Assembly: GCF_035084215.1 (NCBI RefSeq)
Contig: NC_090358.1
Location: 15,686,001 to 15,750,000, forward strand
Length of the DNA stretch: 64,000 nt
Reading direction: 5' to 3'
Source of the DNA: Heptranchias perlo
Lineage: Eukaryota
This document shows, piece by piece, positions 28,003 to 63,825 of the stretch (position 1 is its first letter; the number at the start of each line of letters is the position of its first letter). The notes beneath the pieces are model-generated. The model had not been told where the DNA came from. It saw nothing but the letters and a program-made list of their open reading frames with translations, and searched no databases. The position numbers and the translations under genes are program-made.

Positions 28003-29525
28003 CATCCTAAACCACAGCAGTAAACCTGGAGACAGTTTTTTTTTAAAACTCTGGTTAAAATATGAAACTGTGTTGTAATCTTTAAGTTCATGCTACTTGT
28101 TTTAATTTCTGAACGCTTTATTCATCTTGAACTCTTTCCATGCTCTTAATGTGTTTGAACAGGCTTATTTTTTTAAAACTGAGGAGTAGTATTTCTTTCT
28201 CTATTTTCACACCATTTTGCAATCAGGCAGCAATGCTAAAATGTAAGGTTCCTTGCATCTGCTACATCTTTCCCTGACAGGGTAGGCAAGATGCTCCTCA
28301 ATTGGTCTGAGATGCTCTTTGGTCGCTGAAGTGGTGTAAAATTAACCCCAGGCTATTCTCTCCCTCCTTTACCTCGACAGCTTTGGTCATGTGGGGAATC
28401 ATGAATCTGCATCATACTACTCGATAATAAGTATAATAATGCTGACAGCAGCACTAAGTTGTTTGGATGATAAAAATTCAAATGACAATTTGTTACAGAC
28501 AGCCACTATTTTTGCACTGCTGTCTCTGAATATGCTGAACTACCACAATATACCAGTGCCCACATACACCCAGAAAAAGTATGTGGCAAAATAGTCATAT
28601 ATTTAGTTTCATGAAATCAAATGACAATGGATATGCAGGAACACAGTAGGCCTAAGTGAGAGATGGGGAACTGGGCTGAATTGAAGCCTCAACTTTCCTA
28701 AACTGCCTGTCCTCAATTGTAAACATAATGTACTTACCCAGGTCTTGTTACTTCTTTTAATATCCAGTAACTTCAAAAGACTGCTAGTTTTTTTTAAAAC
28801 TTGGCCGTGTTGTCCCTTTCATTCCATGAAACCATTCAATTTGTTCCATAGTAGAAATGCTGCTAAATCCTGCCAGAAAACTGTAGGTGCTGCAGCAGAA
28901 GTGGCTCGAATCCCTTGACACAGCAAAAGGGGACGAGCAGCTTTATACTTTTTATTAATGCACCAAAAAAGAAACTGTTTAGACAGTAGCCAGTGCACAT
29001 TAGTAAAGAATTGGAAATTTGGGCTTTAATGGAATGGATAACAATGAAATAAAGAAGGAGGACTAAGCAAGTGAAATACTGGCCTTGAAAATGTAGCAGA
29101 GAAAATCAAAGCTACTGAGACAACATAGAAGAGATTTAGAGGCACTTTGTTTAAAAAACAAACTGAAAGGAAAGCCAATTACAGTGCCACTCTAGAAAGT
29201 AGAAAACCTTGTGCTGAGATTTTATAGAACTTGCTATAGTGAAGTAAGAAAAAAAATTAAAGGAAACTGGATATTTATGGCCTCATATTAAAAAAAAAGG
29301 GCCAATGTACTTATACATCCAGAAAAAGGTATGCAGCAAAAATATATATCAGCCCACAGTAAAATATATGCTTCCAGCGGTGCACTACTCCAAATGGGTA
29401 CCTCCATGTGATACGTTTATTGTTTAATAAAGCCAGTAATAATGTGGGTTTAGTACCATTTGTATTATGGAAGAAACTGATTTCAAAATGAGATGGGCAA
29501 TATTGCCATTTTAAAAGAAAAACTA

Positions 29526-31699
29526 GTTGAGGTGCAGACATTGCGAGACATCAGGGAGGGAGAAAGTTACCTGGACACCTTGATCCAGGAGGCAGACACG
29601 CCCCTTAGACTAAATATTGTAGAATTGGCACGTGGTCAGGGACAGGAGGGTGTGACTGCGAGTGAGGCAGGTACGGGGATCCAGGAGGTAGCATTGAAGG
29701 AGCCTCAGCCTCTGCACCTGTCCAATAGATACAAGGTTCTTGCAGCCCTTGTGGACGAGTGCAGGGACTGCAGGGAGGATGAGCAAACTGGCCACGGCAC
29801 CATGGTTCAGGGGGCCATTCAAGTTGGGGGAGTAAAAAGGAATGTGGTTGTAGTAGGCGACAATGTAGTTAGAGGGATAGATACTATTCTCTGCAGCCAA
29901 GAGCAAGAGTCCAGAAGGCTGTGTTGCCTACCCGGTGCCAGGGTTAAGGACATCTCAGGGCTGGAGAGAAATTTGGAGTGGGAGGGGGAGGATCCAGTTG
30001 TCGTGGTCTATGTAGGTACCAACAACATAGGTAGGACTAAGAAAGAGGGTCTGCTGAGGGAGTTTGAGCAGCTAGGGGCTAAATTAAAAAGCAGAACCAC
30101 AAAGGTGGTGATCTCCAGATTATTACCTGAGCCACGAGCAAATTGGCACAGGGTAAATCAGATCAGAGAGATGAATGCGTGGCTCCAAGATTGGTGTGGG
30201 AGAAGTTGGTTTCGATTCATGGGGCACTGGCACCAGTACTGGGGAAAGAGGGGGCTGTTCCGTTGGGATGGGCTTCACCTGAACCATGCTGGGGCCAGTG
30301 TTCTGGCAAACCAAATAATTAGGGTGGTAGAGAAGGCTTTAAAATAATATAGGGGGGGAGGGGTCAGGTGGGGTGAAGTTTAGATCGATAGAGAAAAGAC
30401 AAGGAAGTAGTACAGGGAAGTGGTGGGGTTAATGATAAACAGAGTGTGTTAGGAAGTGACAGAGCGTACAAACATAAGAGTGCACTAGCAAATGGGGCCA
30501 GGGTAGGAAAGAGTGGTAAAAAGACAAAATTAAAGGTTCTTTATCTGAAGGCACGAGTATTTGTAAGATGATCGATGAACTGGCGGCACAAATAGAAACA
30601 AATGGGTATGATCTCATGGCCATTTCAGAGACGTGGTTGGGAGCTAAATATTCAGGGTTATTTAACATTTCGGAAGGATAGGAAAAAAGGTAAAGGTGGT
30701 GGGGTAGCTCGGTTAATAAAGGATGAAATTGGTATAATCGTGAGAAATGATCTTGGCTCAGAAGATCAAGATGTTGAATCAATTTGGGTGGAGGTAAGAA
30801 ATAGCAAGGGAAAGAAATCACTGGTGGGAGTAGTATATAGGCTTCCTAACAGTAGCTACACTGTAGGGCAAAATATTAATCAGGAAATAAGGGGGGCTTG
30901 TAAAAAAGGTAATGCAATAATCATGGGCAATTTTAACTTTCACATAGATTGGACAAATCAAATTGGCAAAAATAGCCCTGAGGTGGAGTGTATTGAGGAC
31001 TGTTTCTTAGACCAATATGTCGGGGAACCAGCCATTTTGGATCTGGTAATGGGTAACGAAACAGGATTAATGAATGATCTCAAAGTAAAGGATCCCTTGG
31101 GAAGCAGTGATCATAACATGATAGAATTTCACATCCAGTTTGAGAGTGAGGATCTTGGGTCTGAAACTACTTATTAAATTTAAATAAGGGCAATTATAAA
31201 GAAATGAGGGTGGAATTGGCTAAAGTGGACTGGGTAAACAGATTAGATGGTATGATGGTGGATAAGTAGTGGCAAACATTTAAAAATATATATTTTATGA
31301 CTCACAACAAAAATAGATCCCTGTTAGGAGGAAAGACTCCACAAAAAGGGTGAACCAACCATGGCTAACTAAGGAAGTAAAGGATGGTATCAGGTTAAAA
31401 GAAAAATCATACAACATGGCAAAGATTACTGGTAAGCCTGAAGATTGGGAAAACTTTAAAAACCAGCAAAGGATGACTAAAAGAATAATAGAGGGAAAAA
31501 AATAAATTGAGAATAAACTAGCAAGAAATATAAAAACTGACAGTAAAAGCTTCTACAAGTATATAAAAAGGAAGAGGGTAGCTAAAGTAAACATTGGTCC
31601 CTTAAAGGATGAGACTGGGGAAATAATGATGGAAAACAAGGAAATGGCAGAGGAATTGAACAGATATTTTGTTTCTGCTCCTATCTCTTATGGTCTTAT
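29526..31699 (+). mobile_element. CR1 LINE: ORF1 esterase + endonuclease, RT deleted, fused directly to the terminal tail
   Basis: ORF 29493-30347 VVVVGDNVVRG...VGTNNIG...DGLHLN; EN motifs; EELNRYFVS joins CTGCTCCTATCTCTTATGGTCTTAT. Confidence 0.93.
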
Positions 31700-38463: not shown

Positions 38464-38860
38464 GTTAATGCTTTATTTGAGCATCATTGTATAATACAAA
38501 GTAATATATGCATAATAGGGCACAACTTTGCAAGTGTAAGCCTCGCAGCACTGAATTGGCAGGCATTTTTATGTAAAGACTTCCGTTGCCCTCTGCACTG
38601 CATCGCGTTGATGGCATTAACTGTACTTGCAGCCCAACACCAAAAGTGAAGATAACCTCCATTACTGAAGTGAGCCTAATATTTTTGTGAGCCACAGCAA
38701 AGCTTTGTTTTATGGATCTGTAGTGTCAGTGCTGCAGAAATAGTAAAATCATGTAGTTAACATTAGCCTAAGTATTTAATGTGCAGTTTGGAACAGAATA
38801 GCTGGTTGTATGCTTTCTGATATCTTGCAAAACTTCATCTTTTCAATGTACTTTTTACAG

Positions 38861-39081
38861 ATAACCCATCAACATGTGCAAGTACTGGGTCAGAGAAGTG
38901 GCACAATCACTTCAATCATACCACCATCACACTACAGCCTGGCTCACCCTGCAATGATTTCAAAGGCTACTGTGATGTCTTTACTAGATGTAGACTTGTT
39001 GATGCAGATGGTCCATTGGCCAGGCTAAAGAAAGCAATCTTTAATCCAGAGCTTTATGAAAATATTGCTGAATGGATTGTG
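38861..39081 (+). CDS. ADAM10: ADAM10 exon 14, cysteine-rich/stalk region
   Basis: 221 nt, AG/GT; [73 protein letters not shown]. Confidence 0.97.
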
Positions 39082-39519
39082 GTAAGTAAATTTGATAAAG
39101 GTAGTGTAGTTTGAGAAGCATGCTGTGACTATACCTTGAGTCGTGGCTCAATTGTATGTATTTAGCAGTAAGGGAAAAATCAAACCGTTTATGTACAGCA
39201 ATTCTTTGATAAAATTGATAATTTGTATTAGCAGGAAGATACTTTGTATTTCATCTTTCTTAATTTATATAAGGTACACTAGCTGTTAACAGCTTGATCT
39301 TTTCCACATGTTCCTGTTAAAGGAATTTTGATGTGTATAATGGTTTGGTTAGCTTTGATGAAGTATGTCTCCACTGCCTAAACCAGAAAATGTGCAAAGA
39401 TGCACCCTTTTGGTGCTATACCATTACACTTTGCCACATAATGGTAAGAAACAGATTTGCATCTGCAGCTCTCCTCATGGTGAGTTCTTGATCTCTGTTG
39501 TGGCCTTGGTGTAAGATAT

Positions 39520-47877: not shown

Positions 47878-48007
47878 TTAAGTTGATATTTTGTGCTTCA
47901 GTCTTCTGTGACGACTTCTGCTTCTGTCACCTTTGCACCTAACAAACGTTTTCTCTTGGGCTGGTTGAATATGCATATTGGTGGTGTTTAAGGAACAGAG
48001 AGTAACT
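47878..48007 (-). CDS. LIPC: Hepatic lipase exon 9 (last coding exon), basic heparin-binding-like tail and stop
   Basis: ttctag| acceptor; VTLCSLNTTNMHIQPAQEKTFVRCKGDRSRSRHRRLKHKIST then TAA. Confidence 0.93.
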
Positions 48008-49009
48008 CTAGAAAGATTTAAAAATAAAGTTAATTCTGTTCAATCCTTAATCACTCACTGGCAATGACACAGTGGGATTTTTGTCACTGATGATCGTAAC
48101 CTGATTCTGAACAGTTTGTGAACTATTTAAGCATTGTGATTGGCTGGCTGAGAATCATGTAATCATGCCCCCTCCACCATTTGTACTAATAACCGTTTAT
48201 TGTTACTGCCACGGAATCTAGACAATCATAGGTCATAGTGAAAAGTGAATTAAAAAAAAAAATTAAAATACAGATATGCCTTCATGGCAATATTGAAGGT
48301 GTTCAGAGTTTAGCACAATTTGGAAAATTTTGGTGTATTTCAAGAAAACCTACATATGTGCAAATAAGATGCAAAGAATTATTGGTAAAATCCTAATCTA
48401 CATGCTCACTAATCCTAAAACACAAACCTGTAAATAAGCTTTTACAAAGCCACACAACCCCATTTTCCCCAAACTTTCAGCAAGTAGCATCAGACTCACT
48501 TTACTGTGCGTTTGGATTTGTAGGGTATCACTAAATGCTGCACTGTTGAATACCAGTGTGAAACATTCAAAGGGAGGTATAGGCACCAGTGCGAATTCAA
48601 ATCATAATTGTCTTGATTTGTGTTGATTCATTCTTGAAGAGTTTAATAATTATAGCAAAATGATTAAATCACTGTCTCCTTATGCTTTTCAAATTGACAG
48701 TTGAGTACAAATTGTGGACCAACATCAATAAAGGTTACAGTTGCCAACAGGCCAATGTGGATGATTGGCATACATGTCTGATGCATAGAATCTGAATGGT
48801 AAGTCTAATTTTTTTGTTAATGTAAACTTTGGGAATAACTCAGTTCTGTAGAGGATCAGTTATCAATCTGAATAGAGACGAAAGGCTTTCTATTGGCCCT
48901 AGGAATGCATATGTTGTTCTTTGATTGTAACATCCTTATATAGAGACATATAATTTGAACTCATGCACTTTTAAGGATGGGAGAATGGATTTGATTGCAT
49001 AGATGATAT

Positions 49010-52000
49010 ATTGTAGCAACCAACAACATAGGTAGAACTAGGAATGAGGTTCTGCTGAGGGAGTTTGAGGAGCTAGGGTCCAAATTAAAAAGCAGAACCT
49101 CAAAGGTGATAATCTCTGGATTACTACTTGAGCCACGTGCAAATTGGCATTGGGACAAACAGATTAGATGGTTAAATGCATAGTTGAAAGAGTGGTGTAG
49201 GAAGCAAGGGTTTCAATTCATGGGGCACTTGCACCAGTACTAGCGAAAGAGGGAGCTGTTCCATTGGGACGGCTCCACTTAAACTGAGCTGGGACCAGTG
49301 TCCTAGTGAATCGAACAACCAGGGCAGTAGATAGGGCTTTAAACTAATAAGGGGCGGCGGGGGAGAGTTCAGGTAAAGGTAAATTTATAAGTCTAAAGAG
49401 AAAATTAAAGGCTGTGGAGCAGAATAGTGATTTGGGTTAAAAACAAAGTGTGTGTCAGGAAGGGACAAAGTTTAAGAAAGGTAATAGGGCATTAGTGACT
49501 AAGGTCACATCAGGGAAAAATAGTAAAAAGTTAAAATTAAAGGCGCTATATCTGAATGCACGAAGCATTCGTAACAAGATAGATGAATTAATAGCACAGA
49601 GATAAATGGGTTTGATCTAGTAGCCATTACTGAGACGTGGTTGCAAGGTGACCAAGGATGGGAACTAAATATTCCAGGGTACTTGACTTTCAGAAAAGAT
49701 AGGTAAAATAGAAAAGGGTGGGGTGGGGTGGGGTGGGGCCCTGATAATAAGGGATGAGATAAAGACAGTAGTGAGTAGTGAGAAAGGATCTAAGCTCAGA
49801 AAATCAGGAAGTAGAATCAGTATGGGTGGAGCTAAGAAATAACAAGGGACAGCAAACACTGGTGGGAGTGGCTTATAGGCCCCCTAACATAAGTTTATAG
49901 TGTTGGACAGAGTATAAATCAGGAAATTAGAGGAGCAGGGGTAATGCAGTAATCGTGGGGGATTTTAATCTTCATATAGACTGGGCAAACCAAATTGGCA
50001 AAAGTAGTTTGGAGGATGAGTTCATGGAATGTGTTCAAGACAGTTTTCTAGAACAATATGACGAACCAACTAGAACAGGCTATTTTAGATCTTGTGTAAT
50101 GAGACTGGGTTAATTAGTAATCTTATAGTTAAGGATCCTCTGGCGATGAGTGATCATCATATGATAGAATTTCATATTGCATTCGAGAGTGATGTAGTTA
50201 AGTCTGAAACTAAGGTCTTAAATTTAAACAAAGCCAATCATGTAGGTATGAGGGGCGAGTTGGCTAAGGTAGATTGGAAAATTAGATTAAAAGATATGAT
50301 AGATAAACAATGGTGAATATTTAAAGAAATATTTCATAATTCTCAATGAATATACATTCCATTGAGGAATAAAAGCTCCACTGGAAAAATGATCCAACCG
50401 TGGCGAACTAGAAAATTTAAGGATAGTTTTAGATTAATACTAAGAGGCTTACAGTGTTGCTAAAAAGAGTAGTAAGCCTGAGGATTGGGAGAGTTTTAGA
50501 AATCAGCAAAGGATGACAAAGAAATTGATAGAGGGAGAAAATTGAATGAGGGTAAACTAGCAAGAAATATAAAAACAGATTGTAAGGGCTTTTACAAGTA
50601 TGTAAAAAGGAAGAGATTAGTGGGTCCCTTAGAGGCTGAGACAGGAGAAATTATAATGGGGAATAAGGAAATGGCAGAGATGTTAAACAAATATTTTATA
50701 TTTGTCTTCACAGCAGAAGACACAAAAAAAATCGGAAATAGTGGGGAACCAAGGGTCTAATGAGAATGAGGAACTTAAAGCAATTAAGATTAGTAAAGAA
50801 AAAGTACTGGAGAAATTAATGTGACTAAAAGCTGACAAATCCTCTGGACCTGATGGCCTACGTCCGAGGGTTCTAAAAGAGGTGGCGACAGAGATAGTGG
50901 ATGCATTGGTTGTGATCTTCCAGAATTCCCTAGATTCTGTAACGGTCCCCGTGGCCTGGAAGGCAGCAAATGTAACCCCGCTACTCAAGAAAGGAGGGAG
51001 AGAGAAACCAGGGAACTACAGGCCAGTTAGCCTGATATCGGTAGGGAAAATACTAGAATCTATTAAGGAAGTGGCAGCAGGGCACTTAAAAAATCATAAT
51101 ATGATCATGCAAAGTCAGCATGGTTTTATGAAAGGGAAATCGTGTTTGACAAATCTATTAGTTTTTTGAGGATGTAACTAGCAGGGTGGATAAAGGGGAT
51201 CCAGTGGATGTAATATATTTGGATTTTCAAAAGGCATTCGATAAGCTGCCACACAAGAGGTTGTTACACAAGATTAGGACTCATAGGATTGGGGGTAATA
51301 TATTAGCATTGGTTGAGAATTGGTTAATGGACCAAAAGCAGAGAGTAGGAATAAACGGGTCATTTTCAGGCTAGCAGGTTGTAACTAATAGGGTGCCGCC
51401 AGGATCGGTGCTTGGGCCTCAGCTGTTTACAATCTATATCAATGATTTAGATGAGGGGACCGAGTGTAATGTATCCAAGTTTGCTGACGATACAAAGTTA
51501 GGTAGGGAAATAAGCTGTGAGGAGGATGCATAGAGGCTGCAAAGAGATATAGGCAGGTTAACTGGGCGAGAAGGTGGCAGATGGAGTATAATGTGGGGAA
51601 ATGTGAAATTATCCACTTTGGTAGCAAGAATAGAAAGGCAGAATATTTTTTAAAAGGTGAGAGTCTAAGAAATGTTGGTAGAGAGATTTGTGTGTCCTTG
51701 TACATGAATCACAGAAAGTTAACATGCAGGAACAGCAAGCAATTAGGAAGGCAAATGATATGTTAGCCTTTATTGCAAGGGGGTTGGAATATAAGAGTGA
51801 GGAGGTCTTGCTGCAATTATATAGGGCTCTGGTGAGACCACAACTGGAGAACTGTGTACAGTTTTGGTCGCATTACCTAAGGAAGGATATACTTGCCTTA
51901 GAGGGGGTGCAACGAAGGTTCACTAAATTGATTCCTGGGATGAGAGGATTGTCCTATGAGGAGAGATTTAATAGACTGGGCCTATACTGTCTGGAGTTTA

Positions 52001-52360
52001 GAAGAATGAGAGGTGATCTCATTGAAACGTATAAAATTCTTAGAGGGCTTGATAGGGTAGATGCTGAGAGGATGTTTCCCTGGCTGGAGAGTCTAGTACT
52101 AGGGGGCATGGTCTCAAGATAAGAGGTCGGCCATTTAGGACTGCGATGAGGAAAAATGTCTTCACTCAGAGGGTTGAGAATCTTCAGAATTCTCTACCCC
52201 AGAAGGCTGTGGATGCTCAGTCGTTGAGTATATTCAAGACTGAGATCGATGTATATTTGGACTCTAGGGGAATCAAGGGATATTGAGATAGGGTAGGAAA
52301 GTGGAGTTGAGGTAGAAGATCAGCCATAATCTTATTGATTGGCGGAGCAGGCTCGAGGGG
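49010..52360 (+). mobile_element. Decayed CR1 LINE (end of ORF1 + ORF2) filling most of LIPC intron 8, antisense to LIPC
   Basis: ATNNIG and GLH remnants, LNARSIRNK, GNYRPVSL, YLDFQKAFDK, KFADDT, LENCVQFWS; stops and frameshifts; terminal tail missing. Confidence 0.95.
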
Positions 52361-52413
52361 TTGTTCTTAAAAGTAATCTGACAAACAGGTGCGATCAATT
52401 TTTTCATACTTAC

Positions 52414-52632
52414 TTATGTTGTGTTTCTCCAGCTTTGACTCGTATTTTTCTGATGATAAACTCTGGATTTTGATTTTTCTGTCTCCAAGGAAAATAAGTT
52501 TGAACAGTCCTCCACAGGCTAGCCCAATCAACAGAGTTTTCCCACTTGAACTTGAGCATCATCAAATCTCCAATGTTAACGTCCGTGTGAATCAGAAAAG
52601 AATAGGTTTTGTTGGCAGTGATGCTTTCAACT
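52414..52632 (-). CDS. LIPC: Hepatic lipase exon 8, PLAT domain
   Basis: 219 nt, ttcag|...|gtaag; VESITANKTYSFLIHTDVNIGDLMMLKFKWENSVDWASLWRTVQTYFPWRQKNQNPEFIIRKIRVKAGETQH. Confidence 0.95.
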
Positions 52633-53574
52633 CTGAAATAAAATCAAAGTTCCAACATTATATCATCAAGTGCCAGTATAATTTCAAAAAGCTGTTCATT
52701 TTAACTCGGGCTGTTTCAAGCAATATAGGACAACTGCTCCCTACTAAGTTTATTATGAAAGATTAGTGAATGTGGGCTGTTCTGATGTGGAGTCTTAAAA
52801 AAAAAGAAGCTAGGAGTAAGTAACATGCACAATAACTATCAGTTGTTCATTTCCATCTGCTTTTTTGAATTACTTGAAAATGAGGCAAACAGGATTCCAC
52901 TGAGGAGCCCAAATACAAACATTTTTTTTAAAAAGGCAAACCCTGTAGCAGGAAAACTGAAGTAATATAAGCAAAGGACATCCTCCTGTTGATTGAATCC
53001 ACTCCTTACCATGAATGTCAGCAGATTCAGAATCAGTCTATTTAGAGACTGACTGATTTTTTTTTTCAGCCTGTTGATTATTAGCTCTGTTTCCTTCCAT
53101 AATTGTTTAGTGAACTGTGACCTTTGTCCTAGAAATTCTGAGAGAAGCCAAGGGAAAAATGATGTAGAGGTAATTGTGTTCACCACACCTTCCACCTGTC
53201 ATGGAAGAGATGTGTCCCCAGATTTTGGGGGTGGGGGGGGAGTTGGGTGAAATTTGTATAAGATTTTCAGTTGCATCTTCTGTCTTACAAAAGGACAACA
53301 GGCGGTGTGTATTTCAGATCTCGCCCTGTTCCTTCAAGTTGCTCACGTTCTCCTTATAATAATCAGAATTGGACTCAGACTCGCAGCTAAATTTGTCTGT
53401 GTGTTTTGTTAGCCGAATCACTTCATTTTTTGGTCAGCTGATTATCTGAGCTGTGTAGAAACCCTCCCCATGCTTAAGAGATTCCAAACCAAACTTCAGG
53501 GTTTCAGTTGCCTGATATGCAGTGTGCACTCCTTCTGTACAAACATACCCCAGCCTTGAGAACTCGGGTACAGG

Positions 53575-54420
53575 TTTTTTTTAATTCGTTCATGGGATGT
53601 GGGCATCGCTGGCGAGGCTGGGATTTATTGCCCATCCCTGGTGAGCCGCCGCCTTGAACCGCTGCAGTCCGTGTGGTGAAGGTTCTCCCACAGTGCTGTT
53701 AGGAAGGGAGTTCCAGGATTTTGACCCAGCGCCGATGAAGGAACGGCGATATATTTCCAAGTCGGGATGGTGTGTGACTTGGAGGGGAACGTGCAGGTGG
53801 TGTTGTTCCCATGTACCTGCTGCTCTTGTCCTTCTAGGTGGTAGAGGTCGTGGGTTTGGGAGGTGCTGTCGAAGAAGCCCTGGCGAGTTGCTGCAGTGCA
53901 TCCTGTGGATGGTACACACTGCAGTCACTGTGCGCCGGTGGTGAAGGGAGTGAATGTTTAGGGTGGTGGATAGGGTGCCAATCAAGCGGGCTGCTTTGTC
54001 CTGGATGGTGTCGAGCTTCTTGAGTGTTGTTGGAGCTGCACTCATCCAAGCAAGTGGAGAGTATTCCATCACACTCGTGACTTGTGCCTTGTCGATGGTG
54101 GAAAGGCTTTGGGGAGTCGGGAGGTGAGTCACTCGCCACAGAACACCCAGCCTCTGACCTGCTCTTGTAGCCACAGTATTTATATGGCTGGTCCAGCTAA
54201 GTTTCTGGTCAATGGTGACCCCTAGGATGTTGATGGTGGGGGATTCAGCGATGGTAATGCCGTTGAATGTCAAGGGGAGGTGGTTAGATTCTCTCTTGTT
54301 GGAGATGGTCATTGCCTGGCATTTGTCTGGCGCGAATGTTACTTGCCACTTATGAGCCCAAGCCTGGATGTTGTCCAGGTCATGCTGCATGCGGGCTCGG
54401 ACTGCTTCATTATTTGAGGT
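53575..54420 (-). mobile_element. LINE family B 3' part (RT C-terminus and tail)
   Basis: QHDLDNIQAWAHKWQVTFAPDKCQAM...MEYSPLAW...DKAARLIG; 3' tail. Confidence 0.92.
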
Positions 54421-55062
54421 TGACCGGAACCAAGGCTGAGTGACCGTCAAATACATATAGACTACTAATGATATAACCACACTTGCCTGCACAGCAATTG
54501 TAAGAATCCCACTTGAACCCAAAGTTACCTCTTGCCCAAAGGAGTTAAGTCATTAGAAAACTGACAAGTGTAGGTTTGACCCCTCACTAGGTGGACACTA
54601 TGTTAGAAACTCCTTCTGAGTGGCACATTGAGCAGCACAACCTGCCATAAAATGAGTGCATAACCACCATCCTACCACAGCATGGGCACACAGGATACCA
54701 GTGAACAGTGTTTCTACCAGTTAGAGGCACAGAGCCTCAGTACAATCTACTTGCCTTTTTCTAACCCAATCAAGGTAGTCACCAGCCCCTGGATATGTGA
54801 GCATGTGTTTGTATGCTCTGGCTGTGGTTAAAGCCGTCTAACAGTTATTGTTCCAAGTCTAACTGCCTGGATGTGCCAGCCACCTTGATGCATCACAATC
54901 TAATACAACACACACCAGGCTTGCTCATCAGCTGCTGTTCCAGATTCTGATCTAAAGGGCTTTGGCACAGTGAACAACTATACTAGGAGTATTAATAGAT
55001 GAGAGTATAAACTACTGTTACCTCTGATGTGCAAATATATCATATATACATACATACATACA

Positions 55063-55342
55063 CAGCACCTTCCACATCTTCAGGATATCATAAAGTGCAT
55101 CACAACCAATGAAGTACTTTTGAAATGTCACTGCTCTGTGCAAATGAGTTGCTGCGTTTGCCTACATTACAGCAAAATTCCGCAAACAGCAATGCGATAA
55201 ACGACCAGAACTTTTTTTTAGTGGTGTTGGCCACGACATAAGGAGAACTCTTCTGCTCTTCAAATAGTGCCACGAGATCATTTACATCCACCTTGAGCAG
55301 ACAGACAGGGCTTCAGTTTAACATCCCATCTGAAAGATGTTA
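55063..55342 (-). mobile_element. DeuSINE fragment
   Basis: Reverse complement matches the 20348-20719 and 55749-56168 copies. Confidence 0.7.
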
Positions 55343-55748
55343 CAATTTACAAGAAGTAGGAGGCACAAACTGACCCAAATCTGGCTTTGAACTATTCGAA
55401 AGATATCAAAGTATCTTGATCTTAAGCTGCTATTTCTTTGATTTCTGGCTTATAGATTCTAGGTCTGTCCTACCTGAAGTAAAATATCTATGGTGAAAAA
55501 TTCACTCTATCATTCTAAACTATATGAACATTTTAAAATACAGATTGTAAGTAAATATTTTAAATTATTGGGCAGCAGTTCACCTCAGCAGATTAGGACT
55601 TATGCAAATTGCAGTGGTGTTGGTTAAACTGGTTTGGAATCTTCCATGTGACAAAGTGAAGTGAAAACCAGTATAAAGTGGCACCTCCTAGTATATTTCA
55701 ATGAAGACACGGTGTGTGGGAGAGTCACTGGCATACTAAATTTGGTGT

Positions 55749-56168
55749 CAGCCTTGGCTCAGTGGTAGCACTCTCACCTCTGAGTCAGAAGATTATGGGT
55801 TCATGCCCCCTCCAGAGACCTGATTAATAATCTAGGCTAACACTTCAGTGCAGTACTGATTGAGTGCTGCACTGTCAGAGGTGCTGCCCTTCAAATGAGA
55901 TGTTAAAGCAAGGCCCTTTTCAGCTGGATGAAAAGATCCCACTATTTGGAGATGAGCATGGGAGTTCTGGCCAGCATTTATGCCTCAAACAGATTATCTG
56001 GTCATTTATTTCATTGCTGTTTATGGGAGCTTGCTGTGTGCAAATTTATTACCTCATTTCTCTACATTGCAATAGCGACTACACTTCAAAAGTACATAAT
56101 TGCCTGTGAAGTGCTTTGGGACGCCCTGAGGTCACGAAAGGTGCAATGTATATGCATATTTTTTCTTT
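55749..56168 (+). mobile_element. Near full-length DeuSINE with tRNA-like head
   Basis: A-box-like TGGCTCAGTGG, B-box-like GGGTTCATGCCC, central domain and L2-like tail. Confidence 0.75.
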
Positions 56169-56564
56169 ACACAGATAAGGATGTGATTCAAAGATATTTT
56201 CTTTTTTAGTCATATTTATCTTCAAAAGAATATCCTAATTTTAGTTCATTTAAGTTTGTGAATGAAATCCGCAACCCTTATTCCGTTAATCATTTGTTAA
56301 CCTATGGTCACGTGTATATGAAAATTGTGGTAATTTCTATTTCAAACACAAGAGGGTGCAAATAATGGAGAAACCATTAAGAAACTGAATTCTACTGTGT
56401 GGGGAATAGTGAGAAAATAAAAATACAGGTGAGATTACTCGGATGTCTATAGCATTTATTTTAAATTGTGTTCTTACCTTTGTAAATACCATAAAGACTT
56501 TCTGCCAAAGAGAAAGTGGGAGCTATAGTGTTTCCAACATTCTTTGTTTTTTGTTTGAAGATAA

Positions 56565-59500
56565 CTAAAGCCAGTATTAGGAATGCTAAGATGGCATTAG
56601 ATAAAAGGAGAGTGGTCAATTGCAGTATTGACGATGAGGCTTTTTTTTAGTTATGTTAGAAGTCGGATAACAGTCAAAGGCTGCCTAGGTGTTTTGAGGG
56701 ATTTGTCAGGGCAGGATTTGGCTGATGAACTGGATACTTTGCAAAAGCTTTCACTTCTGAAGCGTATGCCATGGCTCCTTGCAGTATTACAGGATAGGTG
56801 TTTAGTTAAAATTGCTTCATTAGAAGTAATTGCAGAAATGGTTTTAGTTAAGATCTATGCACTTAAGATTGATAGTGCTGCAGGACCCAATACCATTTAC
56901 CCCAGAGTGCTAAAGGAAATAGGGGAGGACACTTGCTCAAATGTTCAGTAGCTCGTTGTGGTCCAGGTTGGATGCCATGGATGAGAGGGTTACTGATGTG
57001 GTCCCATTGTTTTTTAAAAAAGGTAAGAAATCGGACCCTGGAAATTATAAGCCCATAAATTTGACGTTAGTAGTAGGGAAAAGGTTGGGAAGCATTATGT
57101 AGAATGTGATTGATGATGACCTTCGGCGAGTTTGGTGGTTATTATGGATAATCAACTTTATGACTTTATGAAACCTAGGTCCATAAGACCATAAGAGATA
57201 GAAGCAGGAGTAGGCCATTCAGCCCCTCGAGCTTGCTCCACCATTTAATGAGATCATGGCTGATCTGATTTTTACCTCAACTCCACTTTCCTGCCCTTTC
57301 CCCATATGCTTTGACTCCCTTGCTGATCAAAAATTTGTCTAACTCAGCCTTGAATGTATTCAATGACTCAGCCTCCACAGCTTTTTGGGGTAAAGAATTC
57401 CAAAGATTCATGACCCTCTGGGAGAAGGAATTCCTCCTCATTTCCGTCTTAAACGGGCGACCCCTTATTCTGAGACTATGCCCCCTAGTTTTAGATTCCC
57501 CCATGAGGGGTAACATCCTCTCAGCATCTACCCTATCGAGTCCCCTCAGAATCTTGTATGTTTTAATAAGATCTCTTCTCATTCTTTTAAACTCCAATGA
57601 GCATAGACCCAACCTGTTCAATCTTTTCTCATAAGACAACCCTTCCATACCCGGAATCAACCTAGTGAACCTTCTCTGAACAGCCTCCAATGCAAGTATA
57701 TCCTTCCTTAAATAAGGGCACCAGAACTGTACGCAGAACTCCAGGTGTGGTCTCACCAGCACCCTGTACAGTTGTAGCATGACTTCCCTGCTTTCATACT
57801 CCATTCCCCCAGACATAAAGGCCAATATTCCGTTTGCCTTCCGGATTACCTGCTGCACCTGTATGTTGACTTTTTGTGTTTCATGTACGAGGACACCCAG
57901 ATCCCTCTGTACCGCAGCATTTTGTAGTATTTCTCCATTCAAATAATATTTTGCTTTTTTATTTTTCCTCCCAAAGTGGATGACTTCACATTTTCCCACA
58001 TTATATTCCATCTGCCAAATTTTTGCCCATTTGCTTAACCTGTCAATATCCCTTTGTAGATACTTTGTGTCCTCATCGCAACTTGCTTTTCCACCTATCT
58101 TTGTATCATCAGCAAATTTGGCCACAAGACACTCTGTTCCTTCATCTAAGTCATTGATATATATTGTAAATAGTTGAGGCCCCAGCACTGAGCCCTGCGG
58201 CACCCCACTAGTTACAGTTACTTTCTGTCTCACACCCTTCTTGAATAGGGGTGTTACGTTTGCGGTTTTCTAATCCGTTGGGACCTTTCCAGAATCTAGT
58301 GAATTCTGGAAAATTACAACCAATGCATCTACTATCTCTGTAGCCACTTCCTTTAAGACCCTCAGATGCAAGCCATCAGGTCCAGGGGACTTGTCAGCCT
58401 TGAGACCCATTAGTTTACCTAATATTTTTTCTCCAGTGATTGTTTTTAGTTCCTCCCTCCCCTTTGTCCCTTGATTTTCTACTATTATTGGTACATTATT
58501 AGTGTCTTCGACTGTGAAGACATATAAAATATCTGTTCAATTCCTCTGCCATTTCCTTGTTTTCCATTATTATTTCCCCTGTCTCATCCTTTAAGGGACC
58601 AATGTTCACTTTAGCTACCCTCTTCCTTTTTATATACTTGTAGAAGCTTTTACTGTCAATTTTTATATTTCTTGCTAGTTTACTCTCATATTTTATTTTC
58701 TCCCTCTATTATTCTTTTAGTCATCCTTTGCTGGTTTTTAAAGTTTTCCCAATCTTCAGGCTTACCAGTAATCTTTGCCATGATGTATGCTTTTTCTTTT
58801 AACCTGATACCATCCTTTACTTCCTTAGTTAGCCATGGTTGGTTTACCCTTTTTGTGGAGTCTTTCCTCCTCACAGGGATATATTGTTGCGAGTCATAAA
58901 ATATCTTTTTAAATGTTTGCCACTGCTTATCCACCATCATACCATCTAATCTGTTCACCCAGTCTATTTTAGCCAATTCTGCCCTCATTCCTCCATAATT
59001 GCCCTTATTTAAGTTTAATACAGTAGTTTCAGACCCAAGATCCTCACTCTCAAACTGGATGTGAAATCCAATCATGTTATGATCACTGCTTCCCAAGGGA
59101 TCCTTTACTTTGAGATCATTCATTAATCCTGTTTTGTTACCCATTACCAGATCTAAAATGGCCTGTTCCCTGGTTGGTTCCCCAACGTATTGGTCTAAGA
59201 AACAGTCCCTAATACACTCTCTGAACTGCTCCTCAGGGCTATTTTTGCCAATTTGATTTGTCCAATCTATGTGAAAGTTAAAATCGCCCATGATTATTGC
59301 ATTACCTTTTTTTACAAGCCCCCCTTATTTCCTGATTTACATTTTGCCCTATAATGTAGCTATTGTTTGGTGGGAGGAGTATATAGGCCCCCTGTGATTT
59401 CTTTCTCTTGCTATTTCTTACCTCCACCCAAATTGATTCGATATCTTGATCTTCTGAGCCAAGATAATTTCTCACTCTTATATCAATTTCATCCTTTATT

Positions 59501-60012
59501 ATCAGAGCTACCCCCCGACCTTTACCTTTTTTCCTATCCTTCCGAAATGTTAAATAACCCTGAATATTTAGCTCCCAACCTTGGTCACCTTGCAACCACG
59601 TCTCTGTGATGGCCATGAGATCATACCCATTTGTTTCTATTTGTGCCATCAATTCATCTATCTTACGAATGCTGCACGCATTCAGATAAAGAACCTTTAA
59701 TTTTGTCTTTTTACCATTCTTTCCGACCCCGGTCCTGCCTTACTAACTTGATTAAGTTTTGTGAGGAATTGTCCAGAATGCTGGATGAAGATGTGCTGGT
59801 TGATATTCCAAAAAAACCTCTGATCAAGTATTATGTACACGAATATTAGGAAAACATAGCCCTGTGGCACGATAGGACAGTTACTACATTGGATAGGTAG
59901 CTGGTTGAAATTACTTCACCAATGAGAGTGGATCTGATTGGGGCCCAGTTATAAGTGGAGATCCACAGAGCTCTATACTGGGACCATTACTGTCCATCAT
60001 TTTCATTAATAA
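56565..60012 (+). mobile_element. Old CR1 RT fragment split into 56565-57182 and 59731-60012 by a younger CR1
   Basis: AGPNTIYPRVLKE, GNYKPINLT, FMKPR|SCLTNLIKFCEE continuous across the insertion. Confidence 0.8.
57183..59730 (-). mobile_element. Younger CR1 LINE (EN + RT with internal deletion), nested in an old CR1
   Basis: ORFs 59302-59652, 58686-59291 and 57277-58233 (GVPQGSVLGP, KFADDT); tail TCTTATGGTCTTATGG; possible TSD GGTCC at 57178-57182 and 59731-59735. Confidence 0.95.
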
Positions 60013-61048
60013 TCAAATGGAACAATTCTTAAATTTGCAGTAACAACAGAAGGTAAAATCTCCAGAGTGGCACTTCAGCAGAGGAGGGGGTGGCTGTTGT
60101 GGGGGGCTGGGAGCTGGGGAGGGGAGGAGCTGCATGGTTTTCATCTGCTCAGGATCAGTCTTGTTGCTCTTTGCTGTTTCCTTTCTAATGCAGCATATCT
60201 GTTTTGCATTGTGATCATAACTGAACACAGGAAATTAGGCTTAAAACATGAAAATTATAGTATAAGAAAGTTGGATGATTGAGGAGCTGAAATCATTTCT
60301 GAAGTGTTGCTGAACTCTACATGGTTTAAAAAAAAGTGCAAAACTGCCTGATAGGAAGTGAATGAAATGGTGGTACTTCGCTCTTGCATCTAACTCTTTG
60401 CTGCCATTTGCTTTGAATAAATGTACTAATGGCATTACTGCAATTGCAAGATATGAGTCTCTAGCAAACCCACCATAATCATGTATGTTACTCTGTGATA
60501 CGTTAGTTTCAAATGACAAGGCCTAGTTCACCACGACTGAAATTAATGAAATGTGAGAGTTTATCCCCAGTACAACAGGGCACCTTGCCATCTGTTCATC
60601 TTAACTGTTTGTTTATTTACACAAAAGCTTTTGTGATGGCACTAAAAGCATTGCATATTTGAACAAATGCAAACCCAACTTTACATCGGTGTTATCAATA
60701 TTTAGCATATAGGTACAAACACGCTGTAAAATCAAAAATAAAACTTCATTTAATGTTTGCAATTGTTTCTTCTTTGGCATTCTTACTTCATTATCTCAAA
60801 TTGCTGCTACCACAACTACCACCTGTAATCACCCAGAAAATGGTGCATCTCGGCAAGTGTCAGACAAGATCAACAATGACTGCTGGGCATTTTAAGTTAA
60901 AGTGGACACAGTAGAAACAGCACAAGACCATCAATTAGATCAATTTTTCAATCCTGTTTTTGTGTGATGCACAATTCTTTAAAGTGGAAATGAATTGGAT
61001 GTTACTTTCTAATTTATACATCATTAAAAAATACAGTACAGTACTCAC

Positions 61049-61169
61049 AATTTGATTGGTAAATTTTCAGCATCATCTTGTATTCCATACAAGGAAACAG
61101 TGAGAGAAGGTTCCAATTTACTGTGTTCTGTCTGGTTGATAAAGCGAATCTTGAATTGGTAGTGATAAA
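61049..61169 (-). CDS. LIPC: Hepatic lipase exon 7, start of PLAT domain
   Basis: 121 nt, atcag|...|gtgag; YHYQFKIRFINQTEHSKLEPSLTVSLYGIQDDAENLPIK. Confidence 0.94.
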
Positions 61170-61274
61170 CTGATAAAATTGAAATAAAATGAGTTGATAT
61201 TCATTTTAATTTAATGTAACATGTATAATTAATTCAAAAAGCTACTACCCTAATAATTTTAAGGTCTCTTTTCA

Positions 61275-61570
61275 CCTCCAATTTTCATCTCCCCTTTCCT
61301 GAAGATGTTGACTGATTCTAGGGTATCTGGAGACCTAATGCCCTGCCTTAGTGTTGGCAGGCTGTTTGACCATGGAGCATCAGAGCTAAGCCCAATCTTG
61401 TCCTCACCTGATGTCTGTACAAGTACAATTTCCATCGAATGCAGTTAGAAGTGGGAACCTGGCCTGATTTTTCTCCCCTGCAGCCTCGAGCACTAAGGCT
61501 AATTGTGGCACTCTTACTGCTGCACCAGCTAAGATCAGCTAACTAAGGGCAGATGGGTTCAAATCCAGGT
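61275..61570 (-). mobile_element. Ancient SINE (LF-SINE-like, tentative) in LIPC intron 6
   Basis: On -: TTAGCTGATCTTAGCTGG...CACAATTAGCCTTAG...GTCAACATCTTCAGGAAAGGGGAG; assignment from recall. Confidence 0.45.
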
Positions 61571-61655
61571 AGGTGTTCATTTTAATATTTCATCTGAGTA
61601 ATAACCTGGATGTGGTTTTTGCAAAGGAAGCAATGGAAACAATTAGAAATCGTAC

Positions 61656-61898
61656 CTTTATACGGCATGTCAGCGCGGGTTTTCAGATACATTTTCTTGC
61701 TTCTTTGAGTACGGACCTTTTTAATATTATAGCCCAATGTGTTGCATCGATTCTTTCTGCAGCTCAGACAGATTCCTTTGTTAAACGTGTTCAGGTCATT
61801 GCACCAATATGCAACACTTTGCTTATCTTCATTCAGCAAAGAATCAATGAACAAGTGCACAGACCTCTCATGTGCGCACTTCACAGTTGCTGTAATAC
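61656..61898 (-). CDS. LIPC: Hepatic lipase exon 6: end of lid, catalytic His (CAHERS). 5' boundary set by homology because the canonical AG is missing
   Basis: [82 protein letters not shown] donor at 61655-61654; the acceptor position reads CG. Confidence 0.92.
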
Positions 61899-63115
61899 CG
61901 GAGAGACCATGAAAGAAATGAACAATTGTTACAATAACCTCTGAGCAGTCTAAAGTTTGGAAAAATTTGATAATGTAAAATAATTGACGCCTTCTGATGC
62001 TGTGGTGATGTATGATGCAACAATGCCTGCTGATTAACACAAAGCAGTAACAAAGGCAATCACTGACCATCTAATAGAGATGTTATTTTGAGCAACAAAC
62101 AGTACCCACCATTACCCAAATATGTAATATGATTATATAGATATACATATGTGCTGTTACATTTTATATATGGAGATTCTGCCCACATGTAGACCATGAT
62201 ACTGAAGTGAATTTATTACTTCACTGCATATGTTATCTGATGTTTAGAAACTGAGCAATATAGTCTAGATTCTCGTGTTATTTTAATGCCAGCAGTAATC
62301 CATTGGGACGACACCAATGAAGAAATACACAGACTGCTCATGCGCATGGGGACATCTTGGCTAGTACGTCTGGATGGACACACATTTTGCATCTGTCAAA
62401 CTCATCGCCAATGAAGTTCTCCATATATTGAACATTACTTTATAAGGTTTAGTAATGGAGTCAGAAGATTAATGCAAATGAATGAACTGTATATGTTTTT
62501 AATGCATATTTCGCTGCCTTGCAGGCTGCTTTTATCATGCATCCAACTCCAGTCAGAGGAGATAGTTTATATCATGGATTTTCCCATGTCTGCAGGATGT
62601 GAAATCTGTGCTGAATGAGAGACAATGTCAGTCCTCCTTTCCCCTCCCCCAAACCATAAAAAAGATGAAGGATCTTGCTGTTCACAATACTTCATCCTGT
62701 GAGTCGGACAGCAATTTGCACAACTCAGCCAAGGAGGTTCCACTGATAGCCATTCCTGCAACTCAAACTGGTACTGAAACACTCGACTAACGGACTATGT
62801 CATGCCCATTTTATCTTTTATTTTCAAACTAGCCTTCTGAAAGTTATTCTAAAAATAAGGGATGTCTTTGTACCATGAAATACAGCACTGTATGAATGCT
62901 CCTTCTTGGTGTAGTCAACAATTGTCTGGATACGCCCACTGTTTAATTCCACACATTCAGTACAGACATTCAGTCAAAAGGGTCCTTTGTCAGACCCTTT
63001 CATCATCATTAAATGAATCAGTAAACACATCATTGTCAATATGGCTTTTTAGTTAACATATTTTTCTCATTACAATGAAATATTTATAGCCATTTTCTCT
63101 AAGGTTGAATCATAC

Positions 63116-63349
63116 CTAGAATTCCATATTGAGCAATGTGACTGTACATGTGTTTGATGTGACAGCCAGGTTGAAAGGTGCCACCATTTGGGTAGAAATC
63201 GTAATGGGCTACAGGTTGATTGATTCCAACACTCAGTCCCATATGTTCTTGTGTAAATGTGTGAAGTGCATCAACAAAATTTGCATCATCAGGAGATAAA
63301 CGATCGGATGATGACATGCCTTCAAACAGCGGTCCAGCTGGGTCGAGAC
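63116..63349 (-). CDS. LIPC: Hepatic lipase exon 5: catalytic Asp (GLDPAGP) and first part of the lid
   Basis: 234 nt, AG/GT on -; [77 protein letters not shown]; the [14 protein letters not shown] segment is LIPC-type; LIPC is known to neighbour ADAM10. Confidence 0.95.
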
Positions 63350-63377
63350 CTGTGCAATAAACAAAGTGTGTATTTGT

Positions 63378-63825
63378 AAAAGAAAAAAGAAAGACTTATA
63401 TTTATATAGCGCCTTTCATGGCCTCAGGATGTCCCAAAGTGCTTTACAACCAACAAAGCACTTTTTGAAGTTTAATCACTGTTGTAATGTAGGAAATGCA
63501 GCAGGCAATTTGCATACAGCAGGACCCCACAAAGAGCAATGAAATAAACAGCCAGATCATCTGTTTTAGGAGTTGGTTCAGGGACAGATATTGGATAGAA
63601 CTACTATCCAACTCTTCTACGACTAGTTCCGTGGGATCTTTTGCCTCCACCTGAGAGAGCAGTACTAAGGGAATGCTGCCCTGTTGAAGGTGCTGTCTTT
63701 CAGTTTAATGGCTCACCTGAAAGACTGCACCTTCAACAGTGCAGCATTCCCTTAGTACTGCACTGAAATGTTAGCCTAGATTATGTGCTTAAATTTGTGG
63801 AGTGGGACTCAAACCCACAACCTTG
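63378..63825 (-). mobile_element. DeuSINE with an internal inverted duplication
   Basis: Tail AAAGGCGCTATATAAATATAAGTCTTTC on -; central domain; 45-bp inverted arms 63659-63703 and 63717-63761. Confidence 0.75.

Follow-up and report, generated by a model that had tools for sequence, protein, structure and literature searches.

We propose that the hepatic lipase gene (LIPC) in the window, the whole 64-kb stretch of DNA analysed here, has very likely lost the old splice acceptor of exon 6 and instead uses the AG that follows 9 nt later, so that the product keeps its reading frame, has a lid of 19 residues and is likely still a working lipase. In RNA contigs of two organisms, exon 5 is joined to this downstream AG with the reading frame intact, and the position homologous to the acceptor of other sharks reads CG.

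A LIPC gene with intact catalytic motifs

On its minus strand the window carries exons 5-9 of a vascular lipase gene, tail to tail with ADAM10, whose Cys-rich domain lies on the plus strand at 38821-39111; we take this arrangement of LIPC and ADAM10 to be the human one. The gene name LIPC, given in the initial annotation, is borne out by domains, similarity, tree position and the ADAM10 neighbour. Both the Lipase (PF00151) and the PLAT (PF01477) domain are found in the protein P0005, which matches the window exons. All best non-fused matches of the window lipase are LIPC, and a tree of 30 LIPC rows, built without LPL or LIPG rows, places it within the LIPC of sharks; its paralogues in the same genome reach 47-70% identity in exon 6. 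The motifs of the Ser-Asp-His triad, placed by alignment to LPL structures, are intact: GYSLG in an exon upstream of the window (L008), GLDPAG in exon 5 and CAHERS in exon 6.

Exon 5 (63116-63349, minus strand, 234 nt) encodes the catalytic Asp motif, the cysteine that opens the lid and the 15 lid residues after it; its donor is the GT at 63115, and the RNA contigs stop at 63116. As spliced, exon 6 (61656-61889, minus strand) has 234 nt, not 243, and contributes the last four lid residues, the second lid cysteine and the catalytic His. Exons 7-9 (47881-61170, minus strand, with matches at 61170-61048, 52631-52413 and 48009-47881) are open and identical to P0005 except for one junction residue, and none of the LIPC exons seen has a damaged frame, splice site or catalytic motif. 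P0005 is the RefSeq model XP_067827605, the hepatic triacylglycerol lipase of Heptranchias perlo, an automatic gene model that is identical to window exons 5-9, already has the 19-residue joint and carries no remark on the lost acceptor or the lid. Since it matches the window exons and contains the 61889 joint, we do not count it as evidence separate from this genome.

Three lipase paralogues of the genome have lids of 19 (EL-like), 22 and 22 residues at their best-looking splice sites, which are guesses from DNA. The EL-like gene (L003, on G000:C1), with its EL-type 19-residue lid, is separate from LIPC; there is also an LPL-like pair about 75 kb apart on opposite strands, each with a 22-residue lid, plus a more distant lipase (L004, L005/L007 on G000:C32, L006 on G000:C20). 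Fragments of retroelements are numerous in the LIPC and ADAM10 introns, for example at 57280-58269 (minus), 29481-30344 (plus) and 53593-54549 (minus). Such pieces match reverse transcriptase (PF00078) and a GDSL-esterase-like domain (PF13472), presumably as in CR1/L2-type LINEs; the piece at 53593-54549 is without a Pfam match. Just upstream of exon 5, 63376-63500 is a very high-copy short repeat, with a summed contig depth above 600,000 in a DNA run.

The end of intron 5 in the DNA

Read on the minus strand, intron 5 ends in ...catttctttcatggtctctcCG, followed by gtattacag and then by the exon sequence caactgtgaagtgc. The homologous acceptor at 61899-61900 is a CG in place of AG, with no AG at the 61898 boundary, as the initial annotation had read, and no RNA joint uses it; the homology of this boundary comes from relatives. 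The nine bases that follow (61890-61898, minus strand) are former exon and now intron: they correspond to the codons for the G-I-T stretch in other sharks' lids, and their last two bases are the AG now serving as acceptor (61891-61890). All three in-frame AGs listed in that annotation were recovered, with exon starts at 61949 (+51 nt), 61940 (+42 nt) and 61889 (-9 nt); another AG, at 61938, does not keep the frame. When the three starts are spliced in silico to exon 5 (63349-63116), the lids would have 39, 36 and 19 residues, respectively; the CG site would give a 243-nt exon and a lid of 22.

The two unused upstream in-frame AGs lie at 61941-61951 on the minus strand. Organisms C and D, which both cover the acceptor site and show 46 differences in 523 bases around exon 6, have a 1-nt insertion at 61940 that would put both of these AGs out of frame there. 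The pyrimidine tract (61901-61920, minus strand) is still in best register with the old acceptor, with 16/20 pyrimidines for 61898, 14/20 for 61889 and 13/20 for both 61940 and 61949. Two adenines, at 61929 and 61919 (minus strand), are candidate branch points by motif; they precede the used acceptor by 40 and 30 nt, respectively, and both come after the unused AGs. A stretch of 47 nt free of AG precedes the used acceptor.

RNA contigs enter exon 6 at the downstream AG

Fifteen runs contain part of the stretch, and eight of them were examined, five RNA-type and three DNA-type; the type is an inferred label, although the RNA-type contigs are spliced, and the tissues of origin are unrecorded. 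Every run consists of assembled contigs, which makes depths and shares rough and allows rare forms to drop out. The joint from 63116 to 61889 is present in all three RNA-type runs of the window's organism (X5, X6 and X8, with a single contig per run at depth 225, 39 and 25, from one sample) and in both RNA-type runs of organism B (X9 and X11, with depth 1418 and 14, from two samples of another study); it is absent from the three DNA-type runs. Intron 5 as spliced is the 1226-nt GT..AG intron at 61890-63115 on the minus strand. The acceptor at 61889 and the 19-residue lid, which had been predicted from the DNA, match the RNA contigs of two organisms. Indeed, the proposed check of the exon 5-exon 6 junction, run on the RNA-type contigs, finds splicing at 61889 and none at 61898. 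The two longer options of the initial annotation (+14 residues from 61940 and +17 from 61949) are unused: no joint at 61898, 61940 or 61949 is found in any of the five RNA-type contig sets, although a minor joint of depth 8 was kept in X9.

In X9, eight contigs enter exon 6, with about 98.6% of the depth at 61889, 0.8% unspliced (depth about 12) and 0.6% (depth 8) at a TG site. This trace acceptor (61908-61909, minus strand, exon start 61907) is weak, being found in one X9 contig at depth 8 against 1418, and the joint may be noise. It precedes the used AG by 18 nt, keeps the frame and would give a 25-residue lid; the spacing falls inside the 28-nt limit within which a TG near an AG can be a minor acceptor (PMC2374985). 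A GT-CG intron was considered and rejected on the lack of any joint at 61898 in the five RNA-type runs. An origin of the spliced contigs from a retrocopy was likewise rejected, since the exon 6 DNA has a single match in the genome and the three DNA-type runs lack the joint.

The CG is found in two organisms

The DNA-type run X1 has one contig of 3709 nt (depth 13.4) that covers 61500-63405; no difference is listed at 61900, and it is the only contig in bins 61835-61968. It differs from the window at 1/1906 bases; X1 may be the source of the assembly, and it is therefore not independent support for the CG. Such support comes from organism B, in whose run X9, from another study, unspliced contigs cover 61862-61908 with 0 differences and 61879-62109 with 5, all elsewhere. 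Organism B differs from the window at 62/1061 bases (about 6%) of one intron piece and 5/231 (2%) of another, against 1/1906 in the window's own DNA run, which makes B a distinct genome. The CG is thus neither an assembly error nor a private allele. Of the three origins that the initial annotation had left side by side, the lineage trait is the one supported by the same CG and the same joint in organism B, and the two others fall away. The joint comes from three samples and the CG from two, which is thin for the word "fixed", and fixation within the lineage is what we infer from them. At 61825, inside exon 6, organisms B, C and D share one base that differs from the window, so the base of the window is the derived one there.

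A shortened lid that resembles endothelial lipase in length

Compared with the 22-residue lid of the sawshark, HLKHMYNHIAQYGFLGITETVK, the 19-residue lid of the window lacks one of the two G-I-x units at the turn and has A in place of E, and both cysteines, the terminal lysine and the catalytic motifs are kept. In PMC9439636, this terminal lysine is K276 of human HL, bridged to E97 in a model. The lid lengths given in the initial annotation, 19 for EL and 22 for LPL and HL, agree with PMC3482443; PMC3607615 gives the EL lid as 252-272, and the EL-like protein of a seal, P0210, also has 19 residues. The likeness to endothelial lipase extends to length but not to sequence and charge. The window lid has 2-7/19 identities with three EL lids against 15-16 with the 22-residue lids of sharks, and it is basic (net charge +2, compared with -1 in EL).

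The C-terminal lid segment has a lower amphipathic moment (0.35 versus 0.57). An AlphaFold model of P0005, from an 89-row alignment, has a mean pLDDT of 67, and values below 50 over residues 217-258 and 261-268 make it uninformative on the lid. The LIPC branch length of the window gene is 0.096, compared with 0.080 for the sawshark. P0005 has 14 private changes at conserved columns, three of which are the lid loss, versus 1-13 in 16 other sharks and rays; given these 14 changes, selection on it may be slightly relaxed. Between the window and organism B, exon 6 differs at 1/234 bases and exon 5 at 7/238, against about 6% of the intron.

Lid lengths in sharks, rays and other vertebrates

The lid has 22 residues in 40 of the 41 chondrichthyan LIPC records (isoforms counted apart, four records without a species name, and the read-through protein P0009 left out), and P0005 is the only one with 19. 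The long-lid records represent 22 named species, including Callorhinchus, rays, galeomorph sharks and the sawshark Pristiophorus, and no 19-residue isoform occurs among these 40 records. The skate-like read-through protein P0009 can be aligned across the intron end without any gap, with FFHDLLGITETVKC against the 14-residue translation of the window; this marks the boundary as homologous and the nine bases as sequence that was once exonic. Taken together, the record counts and this alignment make the change derived and confined to a lineage that has at least two organisms and excludes the sawshark, and they support the acceptor shift as a lineage trait. Short protein fragments of further sharks gave none close to the window (among the best 120 of 206 matches).

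Over all matches, the lid has 22 residues in 94 of 123 rows in one set (17 rows being without a whole lid) and in 78 of 87 in a second set. Apart from the window gene, the LIPC records with 19-residue lids in these sets are all from pipid frogs, namely all seven records of Xenopus and Hymenochirus (P0024, P0025, P0153-P0157); LIPC of Rhinophrynus, Bombina and Ascaphus has 22. Lid length varies by 2-4 residues in fish lipases, both in this survey and in PMC12111056. Herring- and catfish-group LIPC (P0080, P0118, P0119, P0176, P0181, P0195) have lids of 24 residues, and some euteleost LPL records have 25.

Discussion

From comparison with relatives, the ancestral AG probably stood at 61900-61899. 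We favour an order in which the acceptor was lost first and the latent AG came to the rescue second. Likely, a point change at the A of the acceptor was rescued at once by a latent AG within the first codons of the exon: the spliceosome would retain the old branch point and pyrimidine tract and scan to the first AG that it meets. The register of the tract, a branch distance of 30-40 nt and the 47-nt AG-free stretch fit what PMC2374985 describes, namely a branch site typically 20-40 nt from the acceptor and human AG>TG mutants that activate neighbouring AGs. Probably the lid could bear the loss because, of two short G-I-x repeats at the turn between its helices, one is left, and both cysteines, the lid lysine and the catalytic His are kept. 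The short form would then have spread in a lineage that includes at least two organisms and leaves the sawshark outside, and the enzyme would have retained lipase activity.

The events may also have run in the reverse order: the downstream AG was first put to use as an alternative acceptor, the two forms coexisted, and the old AG decayed after the short form had prevailed. The end state would be the same, and alternative splicing often takes place at tandem acceptors spaced by 3, 6 or 9 nt (PMC2279118), but the lack of a 19-residue isoform in the other chondrichthyan records and a pyrimidine tract that still favours the old position make this order unlikely. Another reading is that of a mildly damaging change fixed by drift, where the short lid lowers activity in a gene under relaxed selection. 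The private changes of P0005, the highest count among 17 sharks and rays, and the lower amphipathic moment at the C-terminal end of the lid point in that direction; against it stand the intact frame, splice sites and catalytic motifs, the ordinary branch length, the few exon differences from organism B compared with the intron, and a spliced transcript in five runs, and we consider drift quite improbable. That the gene makes a normal 22-residue protein, with the CG being an assembly error or a rare allele, or that the CG or an upstream AG is the true acceptor, can hardly be entertained: the possible role of X1 as assembly source and the dropping of rare variants from contigs would leave room for it, but all five RNA-type runs lack joints at 61898, 61940 and 61949, and organism B has the CG as well.

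The last alternative concerns what the loss, by whichever route, would mean for the enzyme. A short lid might admit phospholipids, so that HL works more like EL and was selected for that, with pipid frogs having done likewise independently. The window lid does equal the EL lid in length, the seven pipid records stand against 22 residues in Rhinophrynus, Bombina and Ascaphus, and both short lids, shark and pipid, have G-I at lid positions 13-14. The lid-anchor change E97G raises the phospholipase activity of human HL 4- to 7-fold (PMC9439636), and selection acts against in-frame tandem splice events in ordered regions (PMC2279118), which makes a fixed one in the lid notable. On the other side, the lid is far closer to shark lids than to EL lids and of opposite charge, an EL-type 19-residue lid is still encoded by another gene of this genome, any loss that keeps the frame goes in steps of three residues, and lids of 24-26 residues occur in other fishes (our lid counts; PMC12111056). 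We regard an adaptive switch as possible but doubtful.

Griffon's lid swaps of 2006, which we count against such a switch, reportedly transferred specificity only in part. Short lids accompany phospholipase activity in PS-PLA1 and LIPH (12 residues; PMC9031518), and together with the effects of the lid anchor on HL phospholipase this makes a predicted effect on substrate choice plausible; any such effect would probably be modest. Because the window lid equals that of EL in length only, we hold a clear shift of this HL towards phospholipid to be a tentative prediction, on the doubtful side. Equally tentative is the broader proposal, drawn from sequence comparison, that HL has twice, by a splice shift in the shark and by a deletion in pipids, gained an EL-length lid that would make it a mainly phospholipid-cutting enzyme. 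If true, the two cases would test in nature, each in a single step, whether substrate choice in vascular lipases is set by lid length alone. In the shark, three residues have been lost naturally from an HL lid that otherwise remains almost the same as in other sharks (15-16/19 identical), and pipid frogs are a second independent case. HL phospholipase activity controls human LDL and HDL levels (PMC9439636). If substrate preference is unchanged, the case would be an ordinary tolerated splice shift; it is a clear case, proven by RNA, of a lost acceptor whose in-frame rescue falls inside a functional element. Our literature searches, made outside subscription journals and supplements, found among the papers listed none on a short-lidded HL of sharks or frogs.

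Comparison with known systems

The LIPC genes of the sawshark (UniRef100_UPI00398EAB89) and the horn shark (XP_067873999) are like the window gene in domains, motifs and exon layout, at 84-86% identity, and also in tree placement and in having ADAM10 next to them. The window gene differs from them in a lid of 19 rather than 22 residues, an exon 6 of 234 rather than 243 nt, and an E to A change at the first residue past the new joint. Endothelial lipase (LIPG) shares the lid length with the window gene but differs in lid sequence and charge. The LIPC of pipid frogs (Xenopus XP_018110969, Hymenochirus KAG8440433) has a 19-residue lid like the window gene; however, the alignment places its three missing residues in the first helix of the lid, within exon 5, while the shark lost its three by a splice shift. 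By this alignment the pipid loss appears to be an ordinary deletion and an independent event.

The nearest parallels in splicing are the evolutionary acceptor shifts described in the TOGA2 preprint and PMC5010894, in which the homologous acceptor is apparently mutated and a nearby AG that keeps the frame is used, as here. TOGA2 adjusted 452 coding exons from human to mouse (10.64898/2026.06.30.735536), and most apparent acceptor shifts are annotation artefacts according to PMC5010894. In the window gene the homologous acceptor is lost, a nearby AG is used in RNA, and the outgroups keep the 22-residue boundary. The in-frame acceptor shift is thus a known kind of mechanism, and the interest lies in the site affected: unlike the artefactual shifts of PMC5010894, the one in the window is proven by RNA and falls within a substrate-gating element.
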